A stretch of 64,000 nt of DNA from IMG/VR virus record IMGVR_UViG_3300009681_000519; one strand, given 5' to 3'. Every line of letters begins with the position of its first letter. The first letter of the stretch is position 1. Source of the DNA: an uncultured virus (IMG/VR IMGVR_UViG_3300009681_000519). Its lineage: Duplodnaviria > Heunggongvirae > Uroviricota > Caudoviricetes. Under the pieces are notes generated by a model that saw nothing but the letters and a program-made list of their open reading frames with translations, did not search any database and was not told the origin of the DNA. The position numbers were made by a program, and so were the translations under genes. This document shows, one piece after another, positions 12,593-57,454 of this stretch.

Positions 12593-12612
12593 TCGGATGA
12601 TCGATCAGCCGT
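12593..12612. repeat. Variant (18/20) of the dispersed 20-bp palindrome
   Basis: TCGGATGATCGATCAGCCGT, upstream of terL. Confidence 0.7.
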
Positions 12613-12877
12613 CGCGCCACAACCGACGCACCCGGCCGAACGCACGACCCGTCAACACCTCGTCATCAACCGTCACCTCGACAAGCGGCGAACTCGCCGG
12701 GTCGCCGTCCAGCTCGCCCGACGTGCACCACGCATCCGGCTCGCCGTGCGCGCATTGATTGCACAACGACACGACCCCGCGACACCGCGCCTCCTCAACC
12801 GCCGCGTCAATCCCGTCGGCCTCGACCTCCGTGTGCATCGAGATCGTCACGTTCGTCACGAACACGTACTTCGACAC
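12605..12877 (-). CDS. Hypothetical phage protein
   Basis: GGAGG RBS before GTG; MSKYVFVTNV…CNQC. Confidence 0.6.
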   Translation of the reverse strand: MSKYVFVTNVTISMHTEVEADGIDAAVEEARCRGVVSLCNQCAHGEPDAWCTSGELDGDPASSPLVEVTVDDEVLTGRAFGRVRRLWRDG

Positions 12878-12896
12878 CGCCGTCACCTCCGCACCA

Positions 12897-12922
12897 AGCA
12901 TCATGCCGCGCGGCATGATGCT
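12897..12922. promoter_or_regulatory. Back-to-back pair of GCGGCATGAT motifs forming a perfect 26-bp palindrome between divergent genes
   Basis: AGCATCATGCCGC|GCGGCATGATGCT lies between the 12877(-) and 12944(+) starts. Confidence 0.75.
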
Positions 12923-12943
12923 CGCACACCGAAAGGAGTCCCA

Positions 12944-13288
12944 ATGTCGCACGGCCCAACCAAACCGAACCTCATCGCCCGCGTCGCCGAACTCGAACAG
13001 GACATCGCCGCCGTCACCCGCGCTCACGTCGCCGCCGAAGCGCGCCTCGCTGAGGTCGAAGCGCTGCTCATCCAAGCCAACGACCGCATCAACACCCTGC
13101 TCGCCGACCGCGAACACGCCGAACGGCTCGCCTCAGACCTCACACGGCAACGTGACACCGCCACCACAACCGCCGCACAACGCCAACTCACCATCGACGA
13201 CCTCAACTCGCGCCTGCACCACGCACTGTCCGCGATCCACGACCTCGCCCGAACAGCCGACCCGTACCCGCGCTCACCAACTACCTGA
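12944..13288 (+). CDS. Small coiled-coil protein
   Basis: AAAGGAG RBS; heptad-rich sequence. Confidence 0.7.
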   Translation: MSHGPTKPNLIARVAELEQDIAAVTRAHVAAEARLAEVEALLIQANDRINTLLADREHAERLASDLTRQRDTATTTAAQRQLTIDDLNSRLHHALSAIHDLARTADPYPRSPTT

Positions 13289-13681
13289 CCCCGCATCGCC
13301 CCGTAGCCCGCGGCCCCCTCGCCCCGCATCGCACGCACACCGCCCGGCATCGTCGTTGCCCCGTCGCCGCATCGTCGCCGCATCGTTGGAGCCCCGTAAC
13401 GGTGCGCCTGAAGCACCGTTTCCAGTTGCAGCAGTACTGCACCTGAGAGGCCAGAATCGAGTTGCACAGTGTCGGTGGCCCTGCCTGCCTCTGGCCCCCC
13501 CTCCCCCCTTCCCCACCCCCGGCCCCCTCGACTCCCCAGGAACGCCGCCCCCCTCACTCACCGCGAACACCCCCAACGTCGTGCGGGGGGCTCCCCCCAT
13601 CCGTGACACGGGGGGCGTGCCCTCGTCGACGGGCGGGGTCGAGGGGTCGATGCAGGGGGGCGGGGTGTTCGGGTCGGGGCG

Positions 13682-13701
13682 ACGGATGATCGATCATCCG
13701 T
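13682..13701. repeat. Dispersed 20-bp palindrome, copy 1
   Basis: ACGGATGATCGATCATCCGT, intergenic. Confidence 0.95.
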
Positions 13702-13846
13702 GGGGGTGGGTGACGAGGGTCGTCACGATGCGAACGGCGGGGAGGTGACTCTCGCGCGTGCTTGACAGGTGCGTCGGAATGCACCCCGCATCCGGGGCGA
13801 GGCAACCATCGGGGCGGTCGGGGTCGTCACGATGGGGTGGGCGCGG

Positions 13847-14527
13847 TCACGAGGGACGGCGCGATGGGTCGTCGGTCGGTGCGTCGATGACCGTGCGGGT
13901 CGGTGCCGGGGCGAGCAGCGCGGCCGCCCGTGCCCGTGCACTCAGTTCGAGCTGTTCGGTCACGATGTCGTCAATGGCGTCGGTGTCGAGGTGTTGCACG
14001 ACCGCGACGAGCGCCTCGCGCACCGACACCGTGCCCGTGATGTTGATGCCGACCGGCTCGATGGTGCCGACGACCCGCGCGAGGAGCTGTTCGTGCCGGG
14101 CGATGGCTCCCCATGGCTTGCGCTCCTGCGCTCGCATCCTCACGAGGTCGGATTGCAACCGCGCTACCTGCTCGGACTTGTACCGCCCGCGGTCGGCCTC
14201 GAATTGCTCGGCTCGCTCGGCCTTCACCTTGCGCACGAGTTCGTCAACGAGGTCGGCACGCATGTCGAACCGCTCCGCGCATGCCCGCCGGATGGTCGCC
14301 GCGTCGGCTCCGCTGTTGAGCAACTGGTAGACCAGCGCCCGGCGTTGCTCCCGCTCCTCGGGCGTCGGCAATCGTGCACGCACCCCGGCGACCTCGGCTT
14401 CGGTGCCTCGCGCCGGGCCGGTTCGTGACCATCGCTCCCGGCCTTCGAGGCCCGGCGTCGACCGGTTCGGGCGGGTCGGGGCGGGTGCGGGGGGGCGGGC
14501 GGGCGAGGGCTTGCTGGGCCGATCCAT
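13847..14527 (-). CDS. Putative terminase small subunit / HTH protein
   Basis: HTH-like N-terminal part, helical core, upstream of terL; C-terminal INITGTVSV. Confidence 0.5.
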   Translation of the reverse strand: MDRPSKPSPARPPAPAPTRPNRSTPGLEGRERWSRTGPARGTEAEVAGVRARLPTPEEREQRRALVYQLLNSGADAATIRRACAERFDMRADLVDELVRKVKAERAEQFEADRGRYKSEQVARLQSDLVRMRAQERKPWGAIARHEQLLARVVGTIEPVGINITGTVSVREALVAVVQHLDTDAIDDIVTEQLELSARARAAALLAPAPTRTVIDAPTDDPSRRPS

Positions 14528-14531
14528 CACC

Positions 14532-15914
14532 TCAATGTGGCATAGCGACCCCTTCGGCACAACGGCATGTTCGGGTGTCGCCCATTGCAGCGGCGTGTTC
14601 GGTGTTGGTTCGCGGCCCTCTCGGTGCGATGTCGTGTTCGGGTGTCGTCGAGACGCGGCCGCATCCGGTGCACACGAACTGCCGCTTGCCCGACGGGGAG
14701 GTGGCTCGGATGAGCGCCCACCGCCCGTCGCCGCGGCCGTGCTCGGCCATGATGGCGAGCATATGGTCGGCTTCCGTGTAGTCCGACCGCCGTTCCTCGG
14801 GCGGCAGCTTGTTGAACGGCGTCGATGCCTGCCGACGCCACCGGGTCGTGAGATCCGACGGGATGATCGTGCACCCGGCGTCGGGCGTCGACTTGTCGAA
14901 CAGGTATCGCATCCACCCCGACCACGCCTCGTGGGCGTACTCCGCGAGCTTGTCGCGCACCGCCTGCGGCACCGTCGCCGCCCCGAGAGCTTCGATGCCC
15001 CGTTCGAGGTCGGCGAGCGGTGCGGCCGGGCCGTCGGCCCTCACCTCGAACGTGATGCACCGCCGGTCGATCTCGATGCGCTTGATGGGCACCGTGCCGT
15101 CGCCGGATGCGAGCACCGCAAGGGCGACCGCCTGCCCGGTGCGCTTCGCCACGTCGGCTCGGGTGCCCGCGTGCCACCACGAGGGCCGGATGCTGTGCTC
15201 GGCCCACTTGGTCGGGCGGGTCACGGCCTCGTAGGCTTCGAGGGTCATCGGCGGTTCGCCGATACGCCGCGAGTAGGCAACGTGGTGCTCGTAGGCCCGC
15301 ACGAGGTCGGGGTCGGGGCTGTCGGCAACCGGCGGGTCGCGCGGGTCGTAGTTGACGGATGATCGATCATCCGTGTGGGGGGCGGTCGGCGGGTTCGGGT
15401 CGGCGGGCACGACACCCGCCCCGTGCGGGGTGTGGTCCCGGCAGTCGCCGAGAAGGTTCGTGCGCCCCTTGTCGCACCGGGGCGGGTCGCCGAACTTCGC
15501 ACCGGCCCGAAGGTGCTGACACAGCGGGCATTGCTGCGGGTGCAACCGGGCGTTCGACAGGGCCGCATCGACGGCCCACCGCGCCCACGATTGCTCGTCG
15601 CGGGCCTTCATCCGTGCCTCACGGATGGCGACCGCCTGCTCGAACGTCGCGGCACCGGGCTCTTGCAGCAGCGTCGCCGGGGTCGCTTCCTGTTTCGGCT
15701 CCTCGTTTGAGGGCGGTGGCGGCGCATCCGAACCGGGGCCGCACACGTCAACTGGCATCGGTCTGAGTCTCACTTCGGTCCTCCCTTCGCTTTCACGGGC
15801 TGCGCGCCTGCACTTTCGCCCATCAGGTCGGTCGTGGTCGCGCATGAAGGCGTTGTAGTCCCGCATCCACGTGCGAACGCCGCAGAACCGGCATTGCAAT
15901 CGGTCGTCGCCCAT
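14532..15914 (-). CDS. Mosaic hypothetical protein with several Cys motifs
   Basis: AGGAGG RBS; CxxC motifs at three places; contains the TDDRSSV palindrome. Confidence 0.5.
   Translation of the reverse strand: MGDDRLQCRFCGVRTWMRDYNAFMRDHDRPDGRKCRRAARESEGRTEVRLRPMPVDVCGPGSDAPPPPSNEEPKQEATPATLLQEPGAATFEQAVAIREARMKARDEQSWARWAVDAALSNARLHPQQCPLCQHLRAGAKFGDPPRCDKGRTNLLGDCRDHTPHGAGVVPADPNPPTAPHTDDRSSVNYDPRDPPVADSPDPDLVRAYEHHVAYSRRIGEPPMTLEAYEAVTRPTKWAEHSIRPSWWHAGTRADVAKRTGQAVALAVLASGDGTVPIKRIEIDRRCITFEVRADGPAAPLADLERGIEALGAATVPQAVRDKLAEYAHEAWSGWMRYLFDKSTPDAGCTIIPSDLTTRWRRQASTPFNKLPPEERRSDYTEADHMLAIMAEHGRGDGRWALIRATSPSGKRQFVCTGCGRVSTTPEHDIAPRGPRTNTEHAAAMGDTRTCRCAEGVAMPH
15355..15374. repeat. Dispersed 20-bp palindrome, copy 2 (intragenic)
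   Basis: Exact copy; encodes TDDRSSV. Confidence 0.95.
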
Positions 15915-15923
15915 CGCTGCCTC

Positions 15924-16130
15924 CTACACGAACGAGAGCACCCGCACGACACGGGAGCCGGGCTCGACCCCGGCGTGGCTGTCAAACTCGGCGAGGTCGC
16001 CGTCGGGGTACTGCTCGGCCTCGACGAGCACCGGTGTCACCCGGCGGTAGGAATGATCGGCCGCGGGCACGACGAGGATTGCGTGACCGGGCGTGTTGGC
16101 GAGGAACTTGATGAGCTGTTCGGCGGTCAT
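15924..16130 (-). CDS. Hypothetical phage protein (putative leaderless)
   Basis: MTAEQLIKFL…; CATGAT-N6-ATG. Confidence 0.6.
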   Translation of the reverse strand: MTAEQLIKFLANTPGHAILVVPAADHSYRRVTPVLVEAEQYPDGDLAEFDSHAGVEPGSRVVRVLSFV

Positions 16131-16153
16131 GGCGGCATCATGCCGCGGGAGGG

Positions 16154-17574: not shown

Positions 17575-17584
17575 GCCGGGCAGT

Positions 17585-23086: not shown

Positions 23087-23106
23087 ACGGATGATCGATC
23101 ATCCGT
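23087..23106. repeat. Dispersed 20-bp palindrome, copy 3
   Basis: Exact copy between the CATGAT motif and the dinG RBS. Confidence 0.95.
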
Positions 23107-23137
23107 GCCGGGTCGCGGTCATCATGCCGCGCGAGCG

Positions 23138-29224: not shown

Positions 29225-29689
29225 TCACAAGCCCTCCGCTGTCAATGCCTCGTCGACGACGGCACGCAACTGCTCGCGCTCCGCATCGTCGACCCGCGCC
29301 TCGTTCACCATCTGCATGACGACCTCGCGCACCGGTGCCGCCGACGCCGCCGGGGTCATCGCCGCCCGCGGCACGACCGCACCGCCCGCGACCCGCGGCA
29401 CGACCCGCACCGCCGCGGCACCCGCCGTCTCGAACGCACCCCGCACCGTCGCGATGAGCACGTCGGTCGCGTCGGCAGGCGGGATGAGCCGCACGATCGC
29501 GCCGCGCGCCACTTGCGCGTCGATTCCACCGCCGACCCACACCTCGGCCGACGGTTCGACCGTCACGACCAGTCGGGAGTCGACCGTCACCCCGACAACC
29601 CCGCCGACGGATGATCGATCATCCGTCACGGCCGCCGTCGATGCCGCCGCGGTCTGCGCCGCAGCTTCGCTTCGGAGCTTGCGCGTCAT
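29225..29689 (-). CDS. Protein resembling the C-terminal (capping/Rad50-binding) part of SbcD
   Basis: Lies between sbcD and sbcC; IVRL…GAAAVRVVP…REQLRAVVDEAL; GGAGG RBS. Confidence 0.55.
   Translation of the reverse strand: MTRKLRSEAAAQTAAASTAAVTDDRSSVGGVVGVTVDSRLVVTVEPSAEVWVGGGIDAQVARGAIVRLIPPADATDVLIATVRGAFETAGAAAVRVVPRVAGGAVVPRAAMTPAASAAPVREVVMQMVNEARVDDAEREQLRAVVDEALTAEGL
29607..29626. repeat. Dispersed 20-bp palindrome, copy 4 (intragenic)
   Basis: Exact copy; TDDRSSV. Confidence 0.95.
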
Positions 29690-30508: not shown

Positions 30509-31711
30509 TCATTCCGCGGTCGGCTTGATGGGCGAGGAAAGGTCGACCTCATACTTCGCCCGCACGGCCGATTCGAGTTCGGCGCACAACGCCGGTTCGT
30601 CGTGCAGCTTGCGCACGGCCGCGTTGAGGCCGTTTCCGAGCCGCCGCTTGCCCCAACTGATCCACGACCCGGTGAGCGTCACAACCTCGTAGTCGAGCGC
30701 CGATTCGATGATGTCGCGCGGCCGGTCGAACCCCTCGGGTACGAGCACACCGTTGCTGGTGTGAAACGCCGCGCGGGGTCGCCGCTGGTCCTTGCCGCCG
30801 ACCTTCGTCTTGCGCACCTCGACCAAGTGTCGTTCGCCCGTGATGCGCGAGTCCTTGTCGCCCTCGCGCACCCATCCGGCCCGAACGATGCGAACCACAA
30901 GCGACGAGTCGTAGTACACCGCCCGACCACCGCCGACCTTGATGCCCTCGTCGAACATGCCCGCATCGGGGTCGTCAGTCTCGCGGGCGACCGCGACCAT
31001 CGCCGTGCCCGTCTGCGCGAGCATCGGCACGAGTTCGTCGAGCCACGCCGCGTTCAATGCCGCCTTGTGCTGCGCGGCACGACCGCCGAGCCCGTCGACG
31101 CCGCGTTGCCCCTTGCGCTTGCGCTTGTCGCCGCCGTCGGATTCTTCGGCCGCCGCTTCGGCGATGAGCCGCGCGAGCAACTTCTTCGGCACGAGCTTGC
31201 GCAGGCTGTCGACGACGATGAGGCCCGACGTGTCGGCGGGTAGGTGCCCCTTCGCCTTCGCGTCGCCGAGCACGTCGCAGAACTCGCGCACGGCGTCGAC
31301 CGTTTCCTCGTAGGTCCGCGGCCGCAACGCACGGAACCCCGGATGCGTCGCGAACTCGGCCATGAGCTTCTGAACCCACGTCTCCGGGGTCGTGTACTCG
31401 GCGTCGACGTAGTTGTAGAAGTGCCCGCGTTGCAGGAAGGACAACCCGAGCCCGTGAAGGAACACGGTCTTGCCCTCGCTCGACGGGCCGTGCACGAGCG
31501 CGAACCGTTCGATCGGCCACCCGCCCACGCGGGTCACGGCGTCGACCTGTGGAAAGATGGTCGGCACCGCCCGCACCCGCGTGAGGACTTCGGCCGCTGG
31601 TCGCCACGAGCTGAACCGTTCGGCGACCGCGGCCATCGCGTCGAGTTGTTCCCGGTTCGCCGCGAACGAATCGGCCGCGGTCGATGCCGGTTGCTTCACC
31701 CGTCGGGTCAT
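30509..31711 (-). CDS. recA: RecA/UvsX-like recombinase
   Basis: GGWP…GPSSEGKT, VDAE, IVVDS, GGGRAVYYDSS, KTKV. Confidence 0.9.
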   Translation of the reverse strand: MTRRVKQPASTAADSFAANREQLDAMAAVAERFSSWRPAAEVLTRVRAVPTIFPQVDAVTRVGGWPIERFALVHGPSSEGKTVFLHGLGLSFLQRGHFYNYVDAEYTTPETWVQKLMAEFATHPGFRALRPRTYEETVDAVREFCDVLGDAKAKGHLPADTSGLIVVDSLRKLVPKKLLARLIAEAAAEESDGGDKRKRKGQRGVDGLGGRAAQHKAALNAAWLDELVPMLAQTGTAMVAVARETDDPDAGMFDEGIKVGGGRAVYYDSSLVVRIVRAGWVREGDKDSRITGERHLVEVRKTKVGGKDQRRPRAAFHTSNGVLVPEGFDRPRDIIESALDYEVVTLTGSWISWGKRRLGNGLNAAVRKLHDEPALCAELESAVRAKYEVDLSSPIKPTAE

Positions 31712-37082: not shown

Positions 37083-38474
37083 TCACTTCTTCGCCTTGGT
37101 TGCCTCGGTGGTGGGCCGACGGCACTCGACGATGGCGAGCAACCGGCCCTCAGAATCGGTCGTCACAGCGAACCGCATCACGACCCCGTTGAGGGCGACA
37201 ATCTCGCCCCACGGGTCGTCAGCGAGCCGCTTCGCACGCTTCGCCTCACCGGCCTTGTTCGCCGCGGGTCGGGCGAACAGCGGCATCTTCAGGCGCTTCG
37301 TCTCGAACGTCGCCGTGATGATCTCACCGGCCGACTCGCGGGCCTTGATAGACGCGGCGTTCGTCGCCTTCGAGGTGTCCTTCTTGCCCTGCCCCTTCTG
37401 CGGCGGGGTGCCCTCGGCGAGCAACCGCACCCGTTCGGCCACGTCGGAGTAGGGCACCCCGTTGCGCACCTCGGCGAGCAGCTTCTCGCGCGTCGACGGG
37501 TCGAGCCGCAGCATCAACCCGAGCTTCGCGACCCCGATGCGGGCAACGTCGGAGGCCGAGAATGTCGCCGCGACGTTCATCAGCTTGTAGGCGTAGGACG
37601 CCGCCATGCCGAGTTCCGCCTCGCAGAACTGCACGAACCCGCGGTAGACCGGCTGGTCCTTGTCGTCGCGCCGCTGCTTCCACAGGTCGTCGGCGAAGCA
37701 CCGCAACACGGCCTGACCGAGCCGCCAGTAGCACACGACCGCGAGGCGCTTCGCTTCGTGCACCGCCGACACCGCCTCGTCGATGGTGATGTCGGGCTTC
37801 GCGATCTGCCGGGCCTGCACTTCCACGAGGTCGTACACCGTGCGGCCGTCAACCGTCGTCGTCGCCCCGTTCGGCACGAGTTCGGTCGCCGGTGCAACGA
37901 CAACGGGAGGAGCCGCGGGGGGCAGTTCCGGGGCCGGGGCCGGTTCCGGGGCCGGGGCTGCGTTCGTTGCCGCGGCCAAAGCGGCGGCCTTTGCTGCTGC
38001 CGCCTGCGTCTTCGACTTGCCCGCCTTCGGCTTCGGGGCCGGGGCCGCGGCCGTCGCTTCCGGGGCCGGAATCGCCGGGCCTGCCGCACCGTTGCCCTTC
38101 GTCTTCGGGGCGGGTGCCGGGGCCGGGGTCGCCTCCGACCGCTTCTTCGGGGTCGCCGGGGCGGGTGCCGGGGCGGGTGCCGCCGCGGGCGTCGGCTTCG
38201 GGGCCGGGGTCGGGCCGTCGAACCCACCCACCCCGCAGTAAGGGCACACCTCGTCGTCGACGCACGAATCGCCGTGGCAGTTGTCGCAGTCGGCAATCTT
38301 GTTCTTCGGCACGGTCGCACGGATCTTGGCGGCGAGCGCCGTCACCCGTTCGGCCGTCGTCTTGCCGGTCACGTCGACCCCGTAGCGCCCGCAGTAGTCC
38401 GCGAGCACCGCCTCGTCGACGCATGAAAGGTCGACCCCCTGTTGCTTCGTTGTGGTTCCCGTTGTCGTCGTCAT
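37083..38474 (-). CDS. Hypothetical DNA-binding protein (Zn finger, Pro/Ala linker, HTH-like domain)
   Basis: CDNC…CPYC; FVQFCEAELGMAASYAYKLM; AAGGAG RBS. Confidence 0.6.
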   Translation of the reverse strand: MTTTTGTTTKQQGVDLSCVDEAVLADYCGRYGVDVTGKTTAERVTALAAKIRATVPKNKIADCDNCHGDSCVDDEVCPYCGVGGFDGPTPAPKPTPAAAPAPAPAPATPKKRSEATPAPAPAPKTKGNGAAGPAIPAPEATAAAPAPKPKAGKSKTQAAAAKAAALAAATNAAPAPEPAPAPELPPAAPPVVVAPATELVPNGATTTVDGRTVYDLVEVQARQIAKPDITIDEAVSAVHEAKRLAVVCYWRLGQAVLRCFADDLWKQRRDDKDQPVYRGFVQFCEAELGMAASYAYKLMNVAATFSASDVARIGVAKLGLMLRLDPSTREKLLAEVRNGVPYSDVAERVRLLAEGTPPQKGQGKKDTSKATNAASIKARESAGEIITATFETKRLKMPLFARPAANKAGEAKRAKRLADDPWGEIVALNGVVMRFAVTTDSEGRLLAIVECRRPTTEATKAKK

Positions 38475-38494
38475 GTCCTGCTCCTTGTCGTCAA

Positions 38495-39169
38495 TCATTC
38501 CGCAACCTCGTCGGTCAGCATCGAAACAACCCGCGTTGCCGTGCGGGTGACTGCCCGCCGTGCGTCGCGTTCATCCTTGAGCCGCAGCGTCGCCCGCGCG
38601 GTCGGGTTCGAGTACAACGCCCCGGCTGCCGACGCCACGTCGCCGCCGGTCGTAAGCAGTGCTTGCAGGCACACGTTGTCGGTCGGCGGAATCGACGCAA
38701 GCACCCGCCCGAACAGCTCGATGCCCGCGACCGTGAACTCCTGCTCGGCCTCGGTTCGGCCGGTCACGGATGATCGATCATCCGTCGGCTCGATACCGAG
38801 GGCTGTTGCTGTCACTTCGTGCCGACTCGGGGCGTGGTCGTCACGCCGCAACGCCGCCCGCTGGCCGTGCAACCACTTCTTCGCCGACGTGATGGCGGTC
38901 CACAGCACGAACGAACGCAACGACACGCCGCGGGTGTCATCCCACGCCGCGACCGCGCGCCACGCCGCGAGCAACATCTCCTGCCGCACGTCGTCGACAT
39001 CGACCGCCGACGGCACTTGCCACCGCCCGCGTAGGTAGGACGCAAGCCGCGTCCAGTCACCGGCCGTCGACCGGACGAACTGGTCGAACGTCATCTTGCC
39101 GGTGCGCAGGCCGTCCAGTTCGGATTCGAGCGGCGTCGGCCGGGCGTTCGGGTACTTCAACCGGCGCAT
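38495..39169 (-). CDS. Phage-encoded sigma70-family (region 2) factor
   Basis: DVDDVRQEMLLAAWRAVAAWDDTRGVSLRSFVLWTAITSAKKWL matches sigma region 2; GGAAGGGGG RBS. Confidence 0.8.
   Translation of the reverse strand: MRRLKYPNARPTPLESELDGLRTGKMTFDQFVRSTAGDWTRLASYLRGRWQVPSAVDVDDVRQEMLLAAWRAVAAWDDTRGVSLRSFVLWTAITSAKKWLHGQRAALRRDDHAPSRHEVTATALGIEPTDDRSSVTGRTEAEQEFTVAGIELFGRVLASIPPTDNVCLQALLTTGGDVASAAGALYSNPTARATLRLKDERDARRAVTRTATRVVSMLTDEVAE
38766..38785. repeat. Dispersed 20-bp palindrome, copy 5 (in the sigma factor gene)
   Basis: Exact copy; TDDRSSV. Confidence 0.95.
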
Positions 39170-41275: not shown

Positions 41276-41554
41276 TCAACGGAGGTTCTTTCGTGTTGCT
41301 GCCAGCCAATCGGGCTCACGTCGCATGTTCCGCTCGACCCACGCGAGGCGGGCCGCGTCGATGACCGGCCACAGGTTAGCGGCCCTCACGATGCGGTACA
41401 ACTGCCACCGCGACAGCCCGACCTCATGCGCGGCCCGGCACACGTTGCCACCCGTCCGGTCAATCGCGTCGATGACCTCGGCGAGGGCGTCGGCACGGTC
41501 CTGCGCATCCCCACGGAAGAACGCCCGGCCGACGACAGTCACCCGGTAGGTCAT
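41276..41554 (-). CDS. Fis-type HTH protein
   Basis: AIDRTGGNVCRAAHEVGLSRWQLYRIV. Confidence 0.75.
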   Translation of the reverse strand: MTYRVTVVGRAFFRGDAQDRADALAEVIDAIDRTGGNVCRAAHEVGLSRWQLYRIVRAANLWPVIDAARLAWVERNMRREPDWLAATRKNLR

Positions 41555-42516
41555 GCACACCCCTCGATTGCCGCCGCGAGCACGTCGACCGGTAGATCGG
41601 CGCAGTCCTTCCCCTCGGGTATCGGCACCCGCACGACCCGCGCCCACCGCCCGAGCGCGGCCTTGAGGTCGGCGAACAGCTTGTTGCCCGCCTTGTCGGG
41701 GTCGGATGCCACGAGCACGTGGGGGAACGTGCTCAGCCGCGCAACATGCCCAGGTTGCAGGTTCGACCCGCGCACCGACCCGAACGGTGGCGGCGTGTTG
41801 AACGCCGGGCACACGTCGATGGCCCGCTCGACCGCCAATCCGTTGATGGCCCCCTCGGTCACGATGACCGTGTGCCGGGCCGCCGGGTCGGGCCACCACT
41901 CCTCGCCGAACACGGCACCCGGCTCGTAGCCGTCGGCCGACGACGGTTCGAGGTATCGCTTCTCGTCGTCGATGAACGTGCGGGCCGTGTACCCGATGAC
42001 CCGATGCCGCGCATCGCGCACCGGAAACACGATACGCCCGCGCAGCTTGCCGTCGACCGCGTACCCGATGCCCCACCGCTCGACCTGCTGCTCCGTGATT
42101 CCGCGGCTCACGATGTACCGCCGGGCCGGTGTCACCCATGCTCCAAGTGGCCCGAACGTGCACCCGGCGGGCAACGTGCACCCACCGACCCGCGAGGGCG
42201 TCGGAACGATCTCGACCCGCATCGGAATGGGGGGCGGGCCGCCGACGAGCCCGTGCGTCTCAAGTATCGCCTGCGCCTCCTTCCACCCGACGCCGAGCTT
42301 GTCAGCCACAAGACCGACCGCGTTGCCCTTCGCCCCGCACCCGAAGCACCGCCACAGCCCGTGTTCGAGGTCGTCGGCGTTGTCGTGGATCTGCCACGAC
42401 GGTTCGCGCTCCTCGTGGAAGGGACAGCACGCCCACCATTCCGACCCGCGGCGTCGACCCTTGATGCCGAGGAACGCGAGCAGCGCGGCAACGTCAACCG
42501 GCCTTCGGCGGGTCAT
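41551..42516 (-). CDS. dnaG: DnaG-like primase (CHC2 zinc finger + TOPRIM)
   Basis: CPFHEEREPS…CFGC, RIVFP, TEGAIN, DPDKAG, KDCAD. Confidence 0.9.
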   Translation of the reverse strand: MTRRRPVDVAALLAFLGIKGRRRGSEWWACCPFHEEREPSWQIHDNADDLEHGLWRCFGCGAKGNAVGLVADKLGVGWKEAQAILETHGLVGGPPPIPMRVEIVPTPSRVGGCTLPAGCTFGPLGAWVTPARRYIVSRGITEQQVERWGIGYAVDGKLRGRIVFPVRDARHRVIGYTARTFIDDEKRYLEPSSADGYEPGAVFGEEWWPDPAARHTVIVTEGAINGLAVERAIDVCPAFNTPPPFGSVRGSNLQPGHVARLSTFPHVLVASDPDKAGNKLFADLKAALGRWARVVRVPIPEGKDCADLPVDVLAAAIEGCA

Positions 42517-42916: not shown

Positions 42917-44384
42917 GTCGGCCCCCTTTCTTCGGTGCCATCTCGCCGATGAAGTTGTCGACCTCGGCTGTCTGCCCCGGCTGCTGGTAGTCGACCGACC
43001 GCCCGTGCCGAATCGACCCCTCCTCGGGCTTCCAGTCGAACTCGACAGCAAGCGGCCACGGGCCGTGCCGTTGCTTGAGCACGAGCACCGCCAGCGACGT
43101 GTCGGGCACGTTCTTCCACAACGCCGGGCGGTGCACCCCGAGGATCGTGTCGGGCACCTCGACCCACGCACCCGACCCCTTGAGGCCTTCGCGCGTCGGC
43201 TGCTTGTCCTCGCGCTGTTCAACGTCCTTGAGGCGTTGCTGGTGCAACAGGATGCAATGGCACCGCGTTTCCTGCGCGATTGCCTGCTGCCGGTACAACG
43301 CCGCCTCCTCCTCGTCGGGGTCGAATTGCCGCACCGCCCGTCGCCACAGGTCGGCCACGAACACGTCGGCACCGGTGTCGGCAATGTAGGCGTGGATGAG
43401 GTCGAGGTTCTCGTCGTTGATGCCGCGCTTACCCCGCTCCCGGCCGAACGGCAGCTCGAAGAACCGCACCCACTCGGCGAGCCGTTCGGCCTCGCCGACG
43501 ACCGCATCGCGCTCCTCCTGCGTGATGGCCCCTTCGACGAACGCCGCCCGCGACAACCCGAGGGACTGGATCGCCATGAGTTCGAGCGTCATGCGCGACC
43601 CCTGCTCCCATGCCCCGAACAGCACCCGGCGGCCCATGTTCGCCTGCGCGACCGCGATGGCCGTCGTGAACGTCGTCTTGCCACCGCCCGACAGCCCCGT
43701 GATGACCGTGACTTGCCCCGGTGCCGCACCGGGCGTGAGCCGATGCCGCCCCGCGTTCGGGTGCCCGTCCTCGTACACGTCGAGGCCGTCGATGCCGTAG
43801 GGGAAGCACGCCACGCCGGTTCGCCGCCGGTCGATGTCGGCCGCCATCTCCTTGACCAGCTCGCGCGGGTCGCGCAAGTACTTCAACCCGGTCAGCCCGA
43901 ACGATGCCGCGACCTGCCGACCGAGCGCACGCACCCGGTCGGGGTCGGCCGTCGGGTCGCGCAACGCTTCGAGCAACGACCCGACCGGGCCGCGGACCGC
44001 CTCGAGCCGAGTGCGATCCCATTCCAGCATCTCGACATGGTGCTTGAGGTTCGGTGGGCTCGCCGGGCGGGCCTCGACGAGCCGCACGAGGTAGTCGGCA
44101 TCGACCGCACCGCCCGCGAGCTGTTGCACCGTCGCCGGGTCGAACTGCAACTGCCGCCGTTCGAGGTCGGCGATGACGCGCCATGCGTCGGCGTGCCCCT
44201 TGCCGACGAACGCATCGGGCGGGAGCCGCGTCACGAGCCACTTGCGCGCCTTCGGGTCGACGAGCGCCGCGGCAATCACCACCTGTTCGTTCACCGTGTC
44301 GTGGGGGATCTGCAACGCCGGGTCGGCCGCCGTTCGCCTCACGGATGATCGATCATCCGTGCTTGCCTCGCTTCGCCGCCTCAT
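42903..44384 (-). CDS. dnaB: DnaB-like replicative helicase
   Basis: PHDTVNEQVVIAA N-terminus, GLSGGGKTT, HQQR, LKGSGAW, LKQRHGP. Confidence 0.9.
   Translation of the reverse strand: MRRRSEASTDDRSSVRRTAADPALQIPHDTVNEQVVIAAALVDPKARKWLVTRLPPDAFVGKGHADAWRVIADLERRQLQFDPATVQQLAGGAVDADYLVRLVEARPASPPNLKHHVEMLEWDRTRLEAVRGPVGSLLEALRDPTADPDRVRALGRQVAASFGLTGLKYLRDPRELVKEMAADIDRRRTGVACFPYGIDGLDVYEDGHPNAGRHRLTPGAAPGQVTVITGLSGGGKTTFTTAIAVAQANMGRRVLFGAWEQGSRMTLELMAIQSLGLSRAAFVEGAITQEERDAVVGEAERLAEWVRFFELPFGRERGKRGINDENLDLIHAYIADTGADVFVADLWRRAVRQFDPDEEEAALYRQQAIAQETRCHCILLHQQRLKDVEQREDKQPTREGLKGSGAWVEVPDTILGVHRPALWKNVPDTSLAVLVLKQRHGPWPLAVEFDWKPEEGSIRHGRSVDYQQPGQTAEVDNFIGEMAPKKGGRRGKR
44341..44360. repeat. 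Dispersed 20-bp palindrome, copy 6 (5' end of dnaB)
   Basis: Exact copy; TDDRSSV. Confidence 0.95.
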
Positions 44385-47214: not shown

Positions 47215-47238
47215 GCCACCCATCATGCCGCGGCTCCC

Positions 47239-47258
47239 ACGGATGATCGATCATCCGT
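47239..47258. repeat. Dispersed 20-bp palindrome, copy 7
   Basis: Exact copy just upstream of the SF2 helicase -10 motif. Confidence 0.95.
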
Positions 47259-51275: not shown

Positions 51276-52894
51276 GGGCCGAGGTCCCACCCGACGACAT
51301 CAAGGCCGCCGTTCACCCGCGTCGCGACACCGGCCGACGGGAAGTAGTTCACCGTCAGGTTGCGGTTGACCGGGGCGATGCCGGGCCACGTCGGAATGAG
51401 CGGCACGTCGACCTCGAACACGTCGGAGTAGATGCCGAAGGCGTCGAACATGCCCGTCTCCTCGCCCGCGTCGATGGCGCACACGTTGTCGGTCGTCACG
51501 CCAAACCGCTTCATGTAGACCTTGCGCGAGAACGAGAACGCCGCACCGGGCGCACCGATGAAGTTGCAGTAGACCTTCAGCCGCACCCGCCGCGCGTTCG
51601 CGGGGTGCGCGAAGTTACCGAACAGGACGTAGGAGTCGGTGTTGATGTTCGTGCCGAACGGGGCGACGAAGATGCCGTTGTTGAGGTCGCCGACGAGAAT
51701 CATGCGTCCGTCGCTCACGGCACCGCGCGGCGCACCACCGCCGTCGCACCACCCCGTCATGACGACACTCGCGTTCTGCGTCGACACCCCGAGGCCGGTC
51801 GAGGTCGGCATCGTGATTGCGAGCAGCGGCGTGCCCGCGTAGTTCGGTGCCACCATCGTCGCGACCGGGATGCCCCGCATCGGGCCGGGCACCCGTCCGA
51901 GCCCAAAGATGCTGTTCTCGGTGTACCGCACCCACCGGGGCAATCCAGCGGGGAAGCAGGCGTAGAGATACCACGGCATCGACGGCACCGGGGCGAATCC
52001 CGGCCCCTGGTTCTCCGGGTTGAGAATGTCGACCCACGGCAGGTCGCCCGACCCCATCGCCGCGGTCGGCGTACCCTTCGCGATCGTGCCCGCGGCCCGG
52101 TAGTAGCCGACGTTGAAGTCCACCGCACCCGACACGTTCAGCTCGACGCCCGGGTTGGTCCATTCGTCGGCGTACACGAGGCACCGTTCGCGCTTCTGAA
52201 GCAGCGACCCGGCATGGAACGGTTGCACCGCGCGGTCGACGATGAGGGGGCGCACGTCCCAGAACGTCACCGTGTCGACGCTCGCGCTGCCCGCCGGAAC
52301 CGATGCGACCGCGAGCGGCAGCCATCCCGTCGTGTTGCCGGGGTAGCCACCGCCCGCCACGCCCGACCGAACGCGATACTGCAACCGGCCCGACACCACC
52401 TTGTCGACAAGGTTCGGTGTGAACAGGCCCGTGGCGGGGTCGAAGATGTCGCGGTTGTCCTGCTCCTCGACCAGTTCGATCGGCTGACACTCGATGACAT
52501 CGATCCGAATCCCGCCACCGCCGTTCGCCGGGATGACGAGCGACCCGATGGCACTGATGCCCGCGTCGAAGATGACCTTGCTCGGGTCGTCGTCGGCGTT
52601 CGGGGTCGCGTCGGGGAAGTAGGCGACCATCTCGCCGGGCGTGATGGTCACCGAATCGGTGCCAATCTGCGGCACGACCATCAACCCGCCGATGACATCG
52701 GCGAGCAGCGGGGCCGTGATGGCTGCCGGTTCGATCGCGTACCCCGCCGACGTGTCAACGATGTACTGGTCGGAGAAGAACCGCCGGTGAAACGCCGACC
52801 GATCTGCCGCGATGAACGCCTGCTCGCGGTTGAAGTCGGTGGAGATCAGCCGTTCCCTCGTGTTGTACTGCATGCGCCTGTGACCGCTCGACAT
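51272..52894 (-). CDS. Putative tail fibre / baseplate-associated protein
   Basis: Follows wedge genes; RERLISTDFN…GGLMV…VTITPG…RIDVIE…PLAVASVP…DVRP resembles a fibre-attachment N-terminus. Confidence 0.55.
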   Translation of the reverse strand: MSSGHRRMQYNTRERLISTDFNREQAFIAADRSAFHRRFFSDQYIVDTSAGYAIEPAAITAPLLADVIGGLMVVPQIGTDSVTITPGEMVAYFPDATPNADDDPSKVIFDAGISAIGSLVIPANGGGGIRIDVIECQPIELVEEQDNRDIFDPATGLFTPNLVDKVVSGRLQYRVRSGVAGGGYPGNTTGWLPLAVASVPAGSASVDTVTFWDVRPLIVDRAVQPFHAGSLLQKRERCLVYADEWTNPGVELNVSGAVDFNVGYYRAAGTIAKGTPTAAMGSGDLPWVDILNPENQGPGFAPVPSMPWYLYACFPAGLPRWVRYTENSIFGLGRVPGPMRGIPVATMVAPNYAGTPLLAITMPTSTGLGVSTQNASVVMTGWCDGGGAPRGAVSDGRMILVGDLNNGIFVAPFGTNINTDSYVLFGNFAHPANARRVRLKVYCNFIGAPGAAFSFSRKVYMKRFGVTTDNVCAIDAGEETGMFDAFGIYSDVFEVDVPLIPTWPGIAPVNRNLTVNYFPSAGVATRVNGGLDVVGWDLGP

Positions 52895-52934
52895 GCGGCA
52901 AGCCTACCACCCGACGGGGCGGGGTGTCAGCCTG

Positions 52935-52954
52935 ACGGATGATCGATCATCCGT
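52935..52954. repeat. Dispersed 20-bp palindrome, copy 8
   Basis: Exact copy, intergenic, 6 bp from the parS-like site. Confidence 0.95.
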
Positions 52955-52960
52955 GGCGGG

Positions 52961-52976
52961 TGTTTCACGTGGAACC
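52961..52976. promoter_or_regulatory. parS-like site
   Basis: TGTTTCACGTGGAACC, 14/16 identical to the chromosomal parS consensus TGTTTCACGTGAAACA; intergenic. Confidence 0.6.
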
Positions 52977-54599: not shown

Positions 54600-55704
54600 A
54601 CCACCGTCACGTTGGCAAGGGTCGTGCGCAGGGTCATGCCCGGCGCAGGCACGAGGTCACCGGTCGGGGCAACGACCGCCGATTCGGTCACGATGAGGCC
54701 TTGGTTCTGGAACCGTTGCAGCACGACGTAGATCTGCGCTCGCGATAGGGTCTGGTTGACCGCGAGCGAGTTGATGAACGCCACGACCGCGTTGCGCACG
54801 GCCTCGGTCACGGTCGTCGTGTCGACGTTCGCCGCGAACGTGAGCTTGAGCGCCACGTCGACGATCTGCGGCATCGACAGTGCCGTGATGACCGCGATGC
54901 CGCAGGCCCGATACTCCTCCAACTCTGACCGCACGAACGCCCCGAGCGCGGCCGACGCCACGCCCGACGAGTCGGCGATGTAGAGCTGCACAACGCGAGC
55001 CGGTCGCGACAACGAATCGATCACCTCGTAGGCCCGTGCCGACACGACACCCTTGACCGCGAGCGCCCCGAACTCGATCGCCCCCTTCGTGCCGCGGCGG
55101 GCGGTCTGCCAGAAGCTTCGGATGCGGTTCCGGTAGTCATCATCCTCCTCGACCGGTTCGCCGCCCGCGGTCTTCGCGTCGTTGTTGACCTGCAACGTCG
55201 TGTCGAACAGGGCCGACGGCTTGTCAATCTTGCGGATCTGGTTCGCCCCGACTTGGTACTCCTTGCCCGCGAGTACCGCCCGCACGTCACACGTTGCCTC
55301 CAGCGAGGCGGGTGCGAAGGTCGCCGTCGTCGTCGTCACGTACTCGATGCCGGTGAGCGACACGAGCTTCGTACCGATGGGTACGACCCCGCCACCGCCC
55401 GTGGTCGCGGTGCGGAAGAACCTCACCGACCCGACCGCCGCGGCCGCACCCTTGCGCGGCAGTTGGTACTTGTCGAACCCGTACCGGTCGAGGTCTTCCC
55501 CCTCGGCACCGTTCAACGTGAGCGCCCGAATCCGGTCGACGAGGTGCCGCGCGACCGCGTGCGCCATGTAGGACGCCGACCCGACGAAGATGTTGATGTC
55601 GGAGCCTCGACATCGACTTGCGCGGGGTCGATGCGCTTCGCCCGCGTCGCGACGTATCGCCGACCGATGCGGTAGAAGTCAAACCTCGTGAGAATCTCGG
55701 CCAT
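54596..55704 (-). CDS. Baseplate J-like protein, frameshifted at ~55605
   Basis: AEGEDLD…RKGAAAAVG…GGEPVEEDDDYRNR…RGT. N-terminus in a different frame; adding one G gives …QVDVEGSDINIFVGSASYMAHAV…. Confidence 0.85.
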
Positions 55705-55715
55705 GCGTCACCTCA

Positions 55716-56615
55716 TCACACCGGGCTCGTCGCGTCGAACGGCACGTCGACCGCGACCGGCTTGTTGCTGTACTTGGTCACGGCACGCACTTCGAGCCAG
55801 AACAGGTCGGGGCGGTTGTCGTCGCGTCGGAACCGACACGACACGTCGCGCGTCTCGGGCTCCTGCCGGATCTGCGCTTCGGCATCCGACGTGAGCGCGT
55901 CACGCACGCCGGGCCGCCCGAGCTGCTTCACTTGGTCGGGCAACCCCACCCCGTAGGTCGGCAGCCACGCGAACTTGCCCTTGCGCGTCATGCACCGGCG
56001 GAACACGCGCTTGCGGTAGCTGTCCACGCCGTCGTCGAACGCGAGGTCGCCCTGAGCATCGACCGGGATGGTGCCGAGGATGAGCGAGTCGGTCGTGTTC
56101 GGCAACGGGTCGAGCATGCCCGCGCGGTTCTGCGGGTTAGCGATGTCCTTCGACGACACGATGAGGTCGACCCGCGGTTGCATGAACCCGCGCGACAGCC
56201 CATCGAACAGCCGCGAGGCCGATGCCGGGTCGAGCAGTTGCCCGCCGACCGCACGCAGGCCGTTGCACGCGACCCGATACACCGACGGCCATGGGGAGAA
56301 CGACCGGTCAACCGTCAGGTCGAGCATGGTGCCGCGCGACCCGGCGACCTCGGCGATCTCGACCGCGGCGGGGAACACCGGCCGCGGTTGCGCCCCATCG
56401 GCACCGGTCGAGGTCGGGTCGGTCGTCACCGAGTAGCGTTCGACCGACGCCGCATCGCCGCCTTCGAGCGTGCCCGTGAACAGCGGGGCTGCGTTGAACT
56501 CAAGCCGCACGACGTTCTCGCGCACGGCCATCGCTCGCAGCAGTTGCAACGCAACGATGCCGCCACCCCACGGGATGAGGCCCCACGGACCACCGCCCCA
56601 TCCAGCACCGCTCAC
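55716..56615 (-). CDS. Baseplate wedge protein with C-terminal gp25/gpW-like domain
   Basis: GDLAFDDGVDSYRKRVFRRCMTRKG…PTYGVGL…IRQEP. Confidence 0.7.
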   Translation of the reverse strand: MSGAGWGGGPWGLIPWGGGIVALQLLRAMAVRENVVRLEFNAAPLFTGTLEGGDAASVERYSVTTDPTSTGADGAQPRPVFPAAVEIAEVAGSRGTMLDLTVDRSFSPWPSVYRVACNGLRAVGGQLLDPASASRLFDGLSRGFMQPRVDLIVSSKDIANPQNRAGMLDPLPNTTDSLILGTIPVDAQGDLAFDDGVDSYRKRVFRRCMTRKGKFAWLPTYGVGLPDQVKQLGRPGVRDALTSDAEAQIRQEPETRDVSCRFRRDDNRPDLFWLEVRAVTKYSNKPVAVDVPFDATSPV

Positions 56616-57391
56616 GGCCGCACCCTCACGTCGAACGCGAAGTCATCGTCGGTGAGTACCCCGAACGCATCGACACGTTCGATTCGGAAGCCGTTGACCG
56701 TCTCGTTGTAGACCGTGCACGAGCCGCCCGTGTTGCGGGCCGTCGCCACCACGGCATAGTTCGCGTTGGGCATGGGCGCGAGGAACGCGATGTCGATGAT
56801 GCCCGGCGACACGTAGGTGGCTGCCCCGATGTTGAGCGACGACGCGAGCGAGGCCGGCCCGCCCGGCGGCAGGATGACTCGTCCCCAGGCGGACGATGCA
56901 CCGACGACCCCGCGGCGGATCACCTCGAACCATCGATACCACTCACGCGACCATCCCTCGGTGTTGCCCGTCGGGTCGATGACATCGGGTACGTTGTGCT
57001 CCGTCGTTTCGCCGAACGCAGGAACCCGACGCGGTAGCTGTCCGGGGTCGGACGCGAGCCCCGACCCCGCGTAGAACGTGCTGCGCACAACGTCGTCGGC
57101 CGACGCCCCGAGGCCCGCACCCGAATCGACGGCAAGCTCGACGTGGTACGTGCCCTCGACATCGATCGGGGCGAACAGCGTGCTTGCCGCGGTCGGGGTC
57201 GCGAGCAGCGACGTTGCCCGCACGCCCGCGTTGATATCGATGGGCCGGTGGATGATGCGCCACAGGTAGGCGAAGAACGGGCCGCCGACCGATGAGAGCG
57301 TCACCGGTTGCCCGAGCACGAGGTCTTCCCGCGCGAACCCCGGCACGCCCGGTGGTCGCGTCAACTGGTCGATGGTGATCTGGACGGCCAT
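56612..57391 (-). CDS. Putative virion structural protein
   Basis: In the tail module; PKD-like N-terminus (GTYHVEL); SAWG…PNANYAV C-terminus. Confidence 0.5.
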   Translation of the reverse strand: MAVQITIDQLTRPPGVPGFAREDLVLGQPVTLSSVGGPFFAYLWRIIHRPIDINAGVRATSLLATPTAASTLFAPIDVEGTYHVELAVDSGAGLGASADDVVRSTFYAGSGLASDPGQLPRRVPAFGETTEHNVPDVIDPTGNTEGWSREWYRWFEVIRRGVVGASSAWGRVILPPGGPASLASSLNIGAATYVSPGIIDIAFLAPMPNANYAVVATARNTGGSCTVYNETVNGFRIERVDAFGVLTDDDFAFDVRVRP

Positions 57392-57434
57392 GCAGGCAGT
57401 CTACAGCCGACGGCACCGATGCCGCCACCCCGGC

Positions 57435-57454
57435 ACGGATGATCGATCATCCGT
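57435..57454. repeat. Dispersed 20-bp palindrome, copy 9
   Basis: Exact copy, intergenic in the tail module. Confidence 0.95.

Follow-up and report, generated by a model that had tools for sequence, protein, structure and literature searches.

Genome-specific arrays of a 20-bp palindrome in a clade of uncultured tailed phages, and a candidate protein that may bind them

Cluster O mycobacteriophages (Corndog and its relatives) carry 17-bp dyad repeats in their genomes (PMC4351075, PMC6439249). According to the available extracts of the first of these papers, dozens of invariant copies are distributed over a non-temperate genome of the actinophage type; many are intergenic, about one third lie in open reading frames (ORFs), and their positions are not linked to the boundaries of insertions and deletions (indels). 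The repeats were predicted to bind a dimeric protein, and no function was assigned to them (PMC4351075). On the strength of these extracts they are the closest published analogue of the array analyzed here, which is formed by a perfect 20-bp palindrome, ACGGATGATCGATCATCCGT, in 64,000 nucleotides of DNA from an uncultured tailed virus (IMG/VR record IMGVR_UViG_3300009681_000519). We call this whole stretch the window, and positions below are counted from its first letter.

Other systems provide partial parallels. The repressor of phage phiC31 recognizes CIRs, highly conserved inverted repeats of ~17 bp that are present at many intergenic loci of this actinophage and near early promoters; phiC31 itself is temperate, and its repressor gene is known. 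The MotA boxes of phage T4 are asymmetric 9-bp elements located at a fixed distance, near -30, where they replace the -35 element and are recognized by a phage protein acting together with a modified or partial sigma. The stoperators of Cluster A phages comprise 20-30 sites genome-wide, mostly in short intergenic gaps with a few in promoters, as described in extracts of PMC6550527 and PMC9283540. They are asymmetric 13-bp sequences oriented with transcription and bound by the monomeric immunity repressor of temperate phages, and the consensus is genome-specific, varying with the cognate protein (PMC6550527, in the same extracts). Finally, the KorB operator (OB) network of plasmid RK2 (PMC11790492, in extract) is similar to the present array in having a palindromic operator that recurs around the replicon and whose distance from promoters varies.

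The array in the window is a real, clade-wide system of cis elements with many specificities. We put at about even the chances that it is a dispersed operator network acting on transcription, with predicted binding by a dimeric zinc-ribbon protein that the phage encodes at 37083-38498; we infer the identity of the binder, its binding as a dimer and the transcriptional effect from the observations set out below.

The palindrome array and its genome-specific forms

A pattern search of the window returned nine exact copies of ACGGATGATCGATCATCCGT (at 13682, 15355, 23087, 29607, 38766, 44341, 47239, 52935 and 57435) together with the variant TCGGATGATCGATCAGCCGT at 12593, which has two mismatches (18/20); this reproduces the count given in a preliminary description of this DNA. 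Allowing up to three mismatches gave these ten matches in total, with no half-site or intermediate copy in the window, and no match was obtained in any of 100 shuffles of the window. The GC content is 53-57% before ~7.6 kb and 66-70% thereafter. All of the copies are located in the high-GC phage part and none in the low-GC arm (1 to ~7.6 kb), in agreement with the earlier statement that the array is absent from the bacterial arm. By Pfam the genes of that arm (dxs, xseA, and those for a GGDEF protein and a HAD hydrolase) are bacterial housekeeping genes. The high-GC part is a tailed phage, in which Pfam and PHROGs recognize terminase, baseplate J protein and tail fibres, replication and repair genes (PolB, DnaB, primase, UvsX/RecA-like, SbcCD, and DinG and SF2 helicases), an MT-A70 and a second DNA methyltransferase, a ParB_N protein and a sigma-like protein having region 2 only. 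Of its called genes 67 out of 69 are on the minus strand; the calls were made with our own scripts based on GC content at the third codon position (GC3), rather than with a validated gene finder.

The preliminary description had named a library adapter or an assembly artefact as a possible source of the palindrome, and we regard this as effectively ruled out. The exact 20-mer is present in 54 stretches over 10 IMG/VR viral contigs, at corresponding places, and in a further 14 metagenome stretches. The 44-54 kb stretch of the window recurs, whole or in part, in 20 rows from 16 coded studies, of which three rows may be the source of this DNA; 18 of the 20 carry at least half of the sampled words of that stretch, and their labels are activated sludge, wastewater, sludge, digester or biofilm. 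Long independent DNA contigs (X4 and X7, from two runs) cross the sites unchanged, while the contigs of one run include short spurious joints between two sites, as expected of a repeat. No RNA run was listed among those that contain the stretch; two runs guessed to be RNA contained small shares of it, in short contigs without starts or ends. Moreover, related phages bear their own versions of the site, as described next.

The nearest record to the window (G001) is an IMG/VR contig rated 100% complete; it is 91,125 bp long, has terminal repeats and is 93-98.5% identical over the phage part. The preliminary description had proposed that copies be counted in relatives, and in this complete genome there are 17 exact copies of ACGGATGATCGATCATCCGT and the same variant, with none of the reversed control sequence; four of the extra copies lie in segments absent from the window. 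Other relatives carry the same dyad in different sequence, with at least 10 genome-specific versions over 13 related phage contigs. A distant relative, G002 (85.6 kb, 62% GC, PolB 46% identical), lacks the site of the window and has 15 exact copies of ACGCCGGATCGATCCGGCGT. Among the matches listed in a degenerate scan, supplemented by exact scans, ACGGGAGATCGATCTCCCGT is the site of G006, G007 and G011 and ACGTCGGATCGATCCGACGT that of G008 and G009. These four types (A in the window, B in G002, with C and D in the others) have a common frame, ACG-NNN-GATCGATC-N'N'N'-CGT, in which the inner triplet is altered on both halves. Six more phage contigs (G012-G017; 50-98 kb, 49-68% GC) were found by searching viral contigs with the domain of the candidate protein (a 10-sequence alignment), and each has its own dispersed dyad: ACGGAAACACGTGTTTCCGT in G012 (9 copies), ATGGATGATCGATCATCCAT in G013 (6 copies and 2 variants), ACGTAAACCGCGGTTTACGT in G014 (12 copies), TCGGAAGATCGATCTTCCGA in G015 (14 copies and 2 variants), ACGTCTAACCGGGTAGACGT in G016 (17 copies and 1 variant) and, as a core, GAACATCGATGTTC in G017 (7 copies). 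There are thus some 7-18 copies per type, nearly all exact within a genome and spaced fairly evenly over the whole of it, at about one per 5-14 kb.

Six syntenic positions bear different site types in different genomes. Sites of types A, B and D precede both the gene for a 657-aa tail protein and the SF2 helicase gene; those ahead of the DinG helicase gene are of types A and B (the latter in G002), and three further positions have types B and D. The sites have therefore been switched in place and in concert. G006 shares its replication module with the window and has a Mu-like head and baseplate module, and sites are present in both modules.

Transcription is essentially one-directional in the window, G001, G002 and the genomes with ACGGGAGATCGATCTCCCGT or ACGTCGGATCGATCCGACGT, and 77 of the 79 called genes of G016 are on one strand. 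The site of G016 has an asymmetric centre, which is found 11 times one way and 7 times the other. The identity of copies extends to this centre, in both orientations over the 17 G016 copies, and this could be taken as the mark of recent spread of a mobile or copy-pasted palindromic element, resembling a repetitive extragenic palindrome (REP) or a miniature inverted-repeat transposable element (MITE), or propagated by gene conversion. The additional copies of G001 in segments that the window lacks, and the single reading frame shared by copies within ORFs, would also fit such an origin. We nevertheless consider it very unlikely. On aligning the flanks of the sites we found no conserved flanking sequence, terminal repeats or target duplications, and Pfam scans of ~290 proteins revealed no transposase or RAYT-like gene. 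Syntenic sites change type in place, and unlike REP or MITE sequences the 20-mer is not multicopy in the prokaryote genomes searched: host-type genomes lack arrays, the exact sequence having two single occurrences in one genome each of 185,579 species. This collection may not include the genome of the host. The indels that distinguish the window from G001 do not begin or end at sites, which further speaks against a mobile element; the idea that the sites are cassette boundaries or recombination sites was dropped for the same reason.

The preliminary description had suggested that binding might be switched by methylation. Three site types (those of G012, G014 and G016) contain no GATC, so a general GATC/adenine-methylation device is unlikely, and this part of the earlier proposal found no support in that general form.

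The Cluster O repeats share with the present arrays their dispersal as invariant dyads, the proportion of about one third within ORFs and the lack of coincidence with indel boundaries. We counted 34 copies of the repeat of Corndog, TGTTCGGNNNCCGAACA, in its genome. Its sequence is different and it has a free 3-bp centre, and in the extracts available for Cluster O one type is described, with no specificity series. Among isolated phages a megablast search with 24 kb gave no match, and tblastn matches to PolB and TerL were all ≤27% identical. Literature searches for GATCGATC in phages returned unrelated papers only, and those for intergenic palindromic repeats with leaderless genes in bacteriophage genomes returned none that was relevant.

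Some further features of these genomes were observed. The bacterial arm of the window (1-7650, 53-57% GC) is joined to phage DNA of 68% GC, and comparison with G001 indicates that the junction at ~7618 (corresponding to G001 21,779) interrupts a phage gene. We saw neither an integrase nor a tRNA or att-like repeat, and the contig that bears the arm may be a chimera or carry an unusual insertion. Several G015 sites (e.g. 6521 and 91986) form part of larger perfect palindromes that reach 28 bp (CCCTTCGGAAGATCGATCTTCCGAAGGG). A 20-mer repeated nine times in G002, GCGAAGCCAGCCAAGGCCGC, probably reflects a tandem repeat in the coding sequence (PAKAAK...) for the C-terminal end of the G002 counterpart of the candidate binder (G002 orig 1-140), and not a second cis element. 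There are inteins or homing-endonuclease inserts in G002 (L104:9105-11990) and G006 (L256:3961-7587 and L256:10961-13186), in the SF2 helicase (an intein with HNH) and in a RecA-like gene (LAGLIDADG), and the window copies of these genes have no inserts. The PolB of G006, at 1,209 aa, exceeds its relatives by ~400 aa, a difference suggestive of an insert, although none is named by Pfam. ARAGORN called a 92-nt tRNA-Ala(cgc) at 31443-31534 on the minus strand, inside the UvsX/RecA-like gene; this is probably a false call.

Position of the sites relative to genes and promoter-like elements

The sites are strongly biased to non-coding DNA. Twelve of 18 are not fully within a called gene in G001, and the corresponding numbers in the other genomes of the set headed by G001 are 13/18, 9/15, 7/9, 7/8 and 3/3, for an expected non-coding share of 8-12% (P from 1e-3 to 1e-10). 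The numbers for G012-G016 are 5/9, 4/8, 7/12, 11/16 and 14/18; the expected share over all the genomes is 8-24%.

The usual order is stop codon, site, promoter-like element and start codon. Sites often begin 0-22 nt past the stop, and in seven cases the first A of the site is also that of a TGA stop codon. For types B and D, a gap of 2-12 nt separates the site from a -10-like hexamer (CATAGT, TACCCT or TATCCT), and ATG or GTG comes 6 nt beyond the hexamer. This is a leaderless arrangement, in which many of the sites are centred around -25 to -35. The gap between site and hexamer in type A is 7-11 nt or 28-31 nt, and the longer gap contains a TTGNNN hexamer. Type C sites precede genes led by a Shine-Dalgarno sequence or supply the start codon itself (a variant ...CCCATg giving ATG). 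Since type C is arranged differently and promoter motifs also occur in the absence of a site, there is no single promoter geometry. Two sites of G002 stand between divergent promoters, and one of these promoters drives a conserved gene of 58 aa on the opposite strand. Amongst intergenic gaps of at least 40 nt, a -10-like hexamer with a leaderless start is found in 16 of 45 that bear a site, compared with 12 of 124 that are site-free (Fisher P = 1.7e-4). A promoter of the extracytoplasmic function (ECF) kind (AAC-N17-CGT) was considered and rejected; the AAC flank is present in type C only (10 of 24 sites) and absent from A and B.

The distances given in the preliminary description for five sites at putative promoters of the window were reproduced. 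The variant site (12593..12612) contains the stop of the upstream gene and lies 11 nt from the hexamer TATCGT (12576..12581, minus strand), which is 6 nt ahead of the terL ATG at 12569 in a putative promoter of the leaderless type; the site is centred at about -33.5, and the variant is kept at the identical place in G001. The site at 23087..23106 is 22 nt upstream of the ATG (23064) of the DinG-type helicase, and 14 nt downstream of the CATGAT hexamer in a GCGGCATGATG motif (23120-23130). That at 47239..47258 is located where the SF2 helicase gene starts, 11 nt upstream of a CATGAT (47222-47227). Between two tail genes, the site at 52935..52954 begins 22 nt past a stop and is 28 nt before TAGGCT (52901..52906, minus), itself 6 nt ahead of the ATG at 52894, so that the site centre is at about -50.5. 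The site at 57435..57454 begins with the final A of the upstream TGA; TAGACT (57398..57403, minus) follows after 31 nt, 6 nt ahead of the ATG at 57391, and the centre is at about -53.5.

Four copies had been placed within genes, and this required some revision. The site at 38766..38785 is indeed inside the sigma-like gene, where it encodes TDDRSSV; alignment, as had been suggested as a check, places this peptide in a variable linker after region 2. The site at 44341..44360 is by the GC3-based call outside the DnaB-like helicase gene, starting 20 nt past the upstream stop and supplying the GTG start by its final GT together with the next g. The remaining two are within called ORFs whose flanking parts lack homology support: the site at 15355..15374 lies in the T-D-D-R-S-S-V frame of an ORF of unknown function (14532-15611/15914, minus), and that at 29607..29626 directly follows the SbcD-like gene, within the first 30 codons of an ORF at 29225-29689. 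The common frame T-D-D-R-S-S-V holds for all six of the in-ORF copies of G001. The last copy, at 13682..13701, is the one palindrome in a C-rich stretch of 730 bp (13118-13846) that contains no confident gene; this stretch is conserved in G001.

The motif GCGGCATGATG occurs 11 times in the window (0.16 expected), ten of these on the coding strand, at 7881, 10815, 12899, 12910(+), 16136, 16732, 20277, 23120, 24239, 34667 and 47221. Several of the G001 copies are followed by 5 nt and the ATG of a called gene. From its sequence and placement this looks like a phage-specific -10-only leaderless promoter (CATGAT). The analogous CGCGYCATAGTAGGGGCATG occurs 11 times in G002.

The position of many sites just after a stop codon, in several cases sharing its A, raises the question of whether the palindrome works as a hairpin, in RNA or in extruded single-stranded DNA. 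It could then be a factor-dependent terminator or insulator, a stabilizer of mRNA 3′ ends or a processing site between genes. As RNA the site folds into an 8-bp stem with a UCGA loop, and 40-nt stretches fold with -14 to -27 kcal/mol. Between genomes the mid-stem triplets change in a compensatory manner, both half-sites together. In addition, unrelated flanks extend the dyad by at least 3 bp in 13 of 71 sites, where permutation gives 6.6 (P ~0.005), a weak hint that hairpin or cruciform potential matters and, as such, weak support for the cruciform alternative offered in the preliminary description. Against these points, the hairpin is present and the T-tract of an intrinsic terminator is absent: the longest run of T in the 12 nt past any of the 71 sites is 2-3, and a terminator scan of 38-58 kb called none of five sites. 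The variants within a genome break the dyad without compensation, which argues against pure structure, and structure alone would not require that all copies in a genome have one stem sequence. What would be the loop in G016 differs with orientation, and both forms are used on one transcribed strand; an asymmetric centre in both orientations on a one-strand genome is better explained by a double-stranded DNA site for a symmetric dimer than by an RNA signal. In gaps of more than 150 nt the site is nearer to the downstream start in 14 cases and to the upstream stop in nine, and some sites are in essential-looking genes such as that of the sigma-like protein. We therefore judge a hairpin function to be improbable.

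A candidate binding protein encoded beside a sigma-like gene

The best candidate for the protein that would bind the sites is the 471-aa product of a gene at 37083..38498 (minus strand). It comprises a CxxC...CxxC zinc ribbon, a Pro/Ala-rich linker and a C-terminal domain of 236 aa, the last including a helix-turn-helix (HTH; FVQFCEAELG-MA-ASYAYKLMNVA) and a small beta domain. Immediately upstream is the sigma-like gene (38495..39169, minus), whose stop overlaps the start of the candidate (ATGA) and in which Pfam recognizes Sigma70 region 2 only. The sigma-like protein may belong, with T4 gp55, to the sigma factors that have region 2 alone; it ends in a variable C-terminal tail (GGDVASAAGAL...), which is truncated in G006. 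This candidate, and the second one discussed below, were already named in the list of proteins that the preliminary description proposed for binding assays.

The candidate has been conserved between types A, B and C, with identities of 34-43%. Pfam gave no match to the 471-aa protein at E 0.001, and none to the C-terminal 236 aa even at E 5; a sequence profile search of the PDB gave nothing below E 0.05. In a profile search of 1.84 billion proteins the family has 1,074 representatives at E ≤1e-3, some of which have SAP, zinc-ribbon or histone-H1-like N-termini. No homolog was found by tblastn in 50,697 deposited phage records, and the six frames of Corndog searched with the family profile (hmmsearch) gave a best E of 0.02, i.e. 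no detectable homolog of the candidate.

The family follows the arrays closely. The profile matches in nine out of nine array-bearing genomes that cover the region, and in none of nine control loci (surrounding distant PolB genes) nor in G010, all of which are without arrays. The sigma-like gene is directly upstream of the candidate in eight of the eight genomes checked, and in seven of eight a site is present in the sigma/binder operon or within 150 nt upstream of it, where chance would give 0.2-0.4 per genome. In three genomes the site is in the sigma linker, each in its own type and reading TDDRSSV in the window, MDDRSSM in G013 and TETRVSV in G012. It is upstream of the sigma-like gene by 12 nt in G002, 24 nt in G016 and ~100 nt in G014, and in G006 it is in the linker of the binder itself.

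The putative recognition helix (AASYAYKLMN in the window) may covary with the site. Residue 2 is proline solely in G012, G014 and G016, which are the genomes where the centre of the site is other than ATCGAT, and this rule holds in nine of nine genomes. It is not simply a consequence of phylogeny, since the G012 protein is the closest relative of the window candidate (51% identity) and yet differs at this position.

A model of the candidate domain made with AlphaFold2 from 82 sequences has a pLDDT of 89.4; an earlier model made from three sequences (pLDDT 45) was unusable. Alignment of residues 17-131 of the model by VIA-align gave best similarity to the DNA-binding domain of ParB with parS (6s6h_B; Z 7.9, rmsd 2.8, 97 aligned residues), followed by Spo0J (1vz0; Z 6.5), KorB (8qa8; Z 5.9), the KorB domain with operator DNA (1r71; Z 5.7), SopB with DNA (3mky; Z 4.5) and VirB (3vwb; Z 3.9). 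Foldseek against the PDB listed Spo0J-parS (4umk_D) with a probability of 0.90 and E 0.5, and neighbours in the ESM Atlas (DUF3102 and 'DUF1016/ParB HTH') point in the same direction. As values of Z below 8 are common for helical domains, we take the ParB/KorB fold as a lead.

Two related arrangements were observed in other genomes. G006 has a second, weaker family member (L256:793-1419; E 9.6e-20) between DUF932-like and sigma-like genes. In G017 the zinc-ribbon/HTH protein shares a single open frame of 750 codons (L313:8438-10687) with a stretch whose likeness to sigma is weak (E 0.003 against the protein of G006); this may be a natural sigma/binder fusion, which Pfam did not confirm.

The second candidate is a 94-aa Fis-type HTH_8 protein (41276..41560, minus), the last gene of the DnaB-primase block. 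Its gene follows that of the primase in both the window and G002 (syntenic, 29% identity) and is present in G012, G013 and G015. In G002 a site with a CATAGT promoter directly drives the gene of the homolog, and the helix ISRRQL is common to the two genomes whose variable triplet is GAA. The binder could accordingly be this small protein, or both proteins as a pair in the style of KorA and KorB, or a factor of the host. By tblastn, however, the small protein was undetected in G014 and G016, which have arrays, and its helices differ between the window and G013 (SRWQLYRIV and TRRHMYRIV) despite the inner 16 bp of the site being common to them. A host factor is unlikely given the two single occurrences of the type A site among the prokaryote species searched. 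We consider these alternatives unlikely, although the present observations do not distinguish between the 94-aa and the 471-aa protein, and the two might work as a pair.

Two other proteins that had been put forward were rejected. The ParB_N protein (25921) belongs to a kind associated with methyltransferases, and neither in G002 nor in G013 was it found; it was not supported as the binder. The XRE protein (18072) was not found by tblastn in G002 or G006-G016.

A possible mechanism and its relation to known systems

The suggestion in the preliminary description that the sites bind a dimeric phage protein thus gains indirect support, in that the sites are genome-specific, their half-sites switch together, and they co-occur with a conserved gene for a putative DNA-binding protein, the helix of which varies with the site. 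We propose that the 20-bp palindromes would be dispersed double-stranded operators for such a protein, the HTH of each monomer entering one of two major grooves 11 bp apart that correspond to the variable triplets. Every phage of the clade would have its own variant of the protein and its own site sequence. Many transcription units would have a site at their upstream edge, in the interval from the preceding stop to the following promoter, and one site is in or just before the sigma/binder operon. As they are found at the edges of units and at this operon, binding most likely controls transcription both genome-wide and of the regulator itself. The effect could be activation, repression or insulation, or the recruitment of RNA polymerase carrying the sigma-like protein.

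A number of observations weigh against this interpretation. Measured from the putative starts, the site centres are spread between about -24 and -54, without a fixed promoter geometry, and about one third of the sites are inside called ORFs. Only two of the 11 GCGGCATGATG copies of the window are near a site and many promoter-like motifs are site-free, as are five of the 11 CATAGT modules of G002 with respect to a perfect site. Within a genome none of the 20 bp varies, not even in the centre, where an HTH dimer should read least, and the extension of the dyad by flanking sequence is more than expected. The fold match is middling, with chains of the Rubisco factor Raf1 scoring alike and ranking between those of the ParB family, and Foldseek against the PDB gave nothing at E ≤0.001. 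In the recognition helix, residue 7 is K or R in four genomes with GAx triplets, with the exception of G017 (R with AAC); the helix positions were picked post hoc with n=9, so the covariation is suggestive only. The ISRRQL helix of the 94-aa protein in both GAA-triplet genomes is a competing pattern, in favour of that protein.

In a more specific form of this interpretation, which we regard as doubtful, the region-2 sigma-like protein and the zinc-ribbon protein with its predicted ParB-type HTH together form a two-part, phage-specific device for promoter recognition. The sigma-like part would read the -10-only leaderless promoters, and the HTH dimer, taking over the part of sigma region 4, would recognize the dyad, which would act as an upstream element that can be moved and works in both directions. 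The array of palindromes would then define the transcription units of the phage, and each lineage would have re-coded a private address by changing protein and sites together. The sites of types B and D, centred around -25 to -35 before a -10-only leaderless promoter, are similar in this respect to MotA boxes and to a two-part sigma. The positions of MotA boxes do not vary over such a range as those of the present sites, many of which have no recognizable promoter.

The sites could also be bound by protein for a purpose other than transcription, such as genome organization, condensation, segregation, replication priming or packaging, and would then be comparable to parS/ParB, matS/MatP or SlmA sites. 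The predicted fold of the candidate matches DNA-binding domains of the partition type, the spacing is fairly even, and both the coding location of some sites and the variation of position relative to promoters would be accommodated. The authors of the Cluster O study inferred the same for the 17-bp dyads, from the available extracts (PMC4351075). We nevertheless consider such a role unlikely. It does not need the strong bias to non-coding DNA and to promoter-like gaps, nor the pairing of the binder gene with a sigma-like gene in all of the genomes checked; moreover no ParA or SMC-loader partner was found, and by Pfam the candidate has no ParB N-terminal domain.

Pfam scans for genes of lysogeny, partition and transposition covered 80 proteins of the window, 103 of G002 and 119 of G001 and G006. 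No integrase, ParA or cI-type repressor was found in these ~290 proteins, with the proviso that absence from Pfam is not proof. A further difference from ParABS is that the sites are dispersed over the genome, not clustered beside par genes, and since ParA was not found we do not think this is such a system. Similarly, the candidate lacks a match to ParB_N, the N-terminal CTPase domain of the sliding clamp, and has a zinc ribbon and Pro/Ala linker instead; it is therefore not a CTP clamp of the KorB type. It would resemble KorB in its HTH if the tentative ParB/KorB-type fold of its model is correct; the presence of a small second HTH protein in the same genome is another parallel. The pairing with a sigma-like gene is a further difference from the KorB network, and the replicon is a phage and not a plasmid.

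The resemblance to stoperators is in the genome-specific nature of the site, with 7-18 per genome and at least 10 types, and in a candidate helix that differs by type. In contrast to stoperators, the sites are perfect 20-bp dyads used in either orientation, as seen for the asymmetric variant in G016. The symmetric, orientation-free sites and the lack of a detected integrase, parA or repressor module indicate that this is not a stoperator system in the strict sense, and the comparison with stoperators made in the preliminary description was not supported as far as an immunity system is concerned.

Dispersed invariant dyads were known before from virulent actinophage-type genomes (Cluster O), with binder and function unassigned. 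What this clade adds is a natural specificity series, of at least 10 site types on a common 20-bp frame with switching at syntenic positions, and a concrete, previously unannotated family of candidate proteins paired with a sigma-like gene. If our interpretation is correct, this family would be a new class of regulator with the ParB/KorB fold and without a CTPase domain, and these phages would provide an example of a whole-genome set of operators and its reader changing specificity together. The orthogonal pairs of site and protein could then serve as tools.

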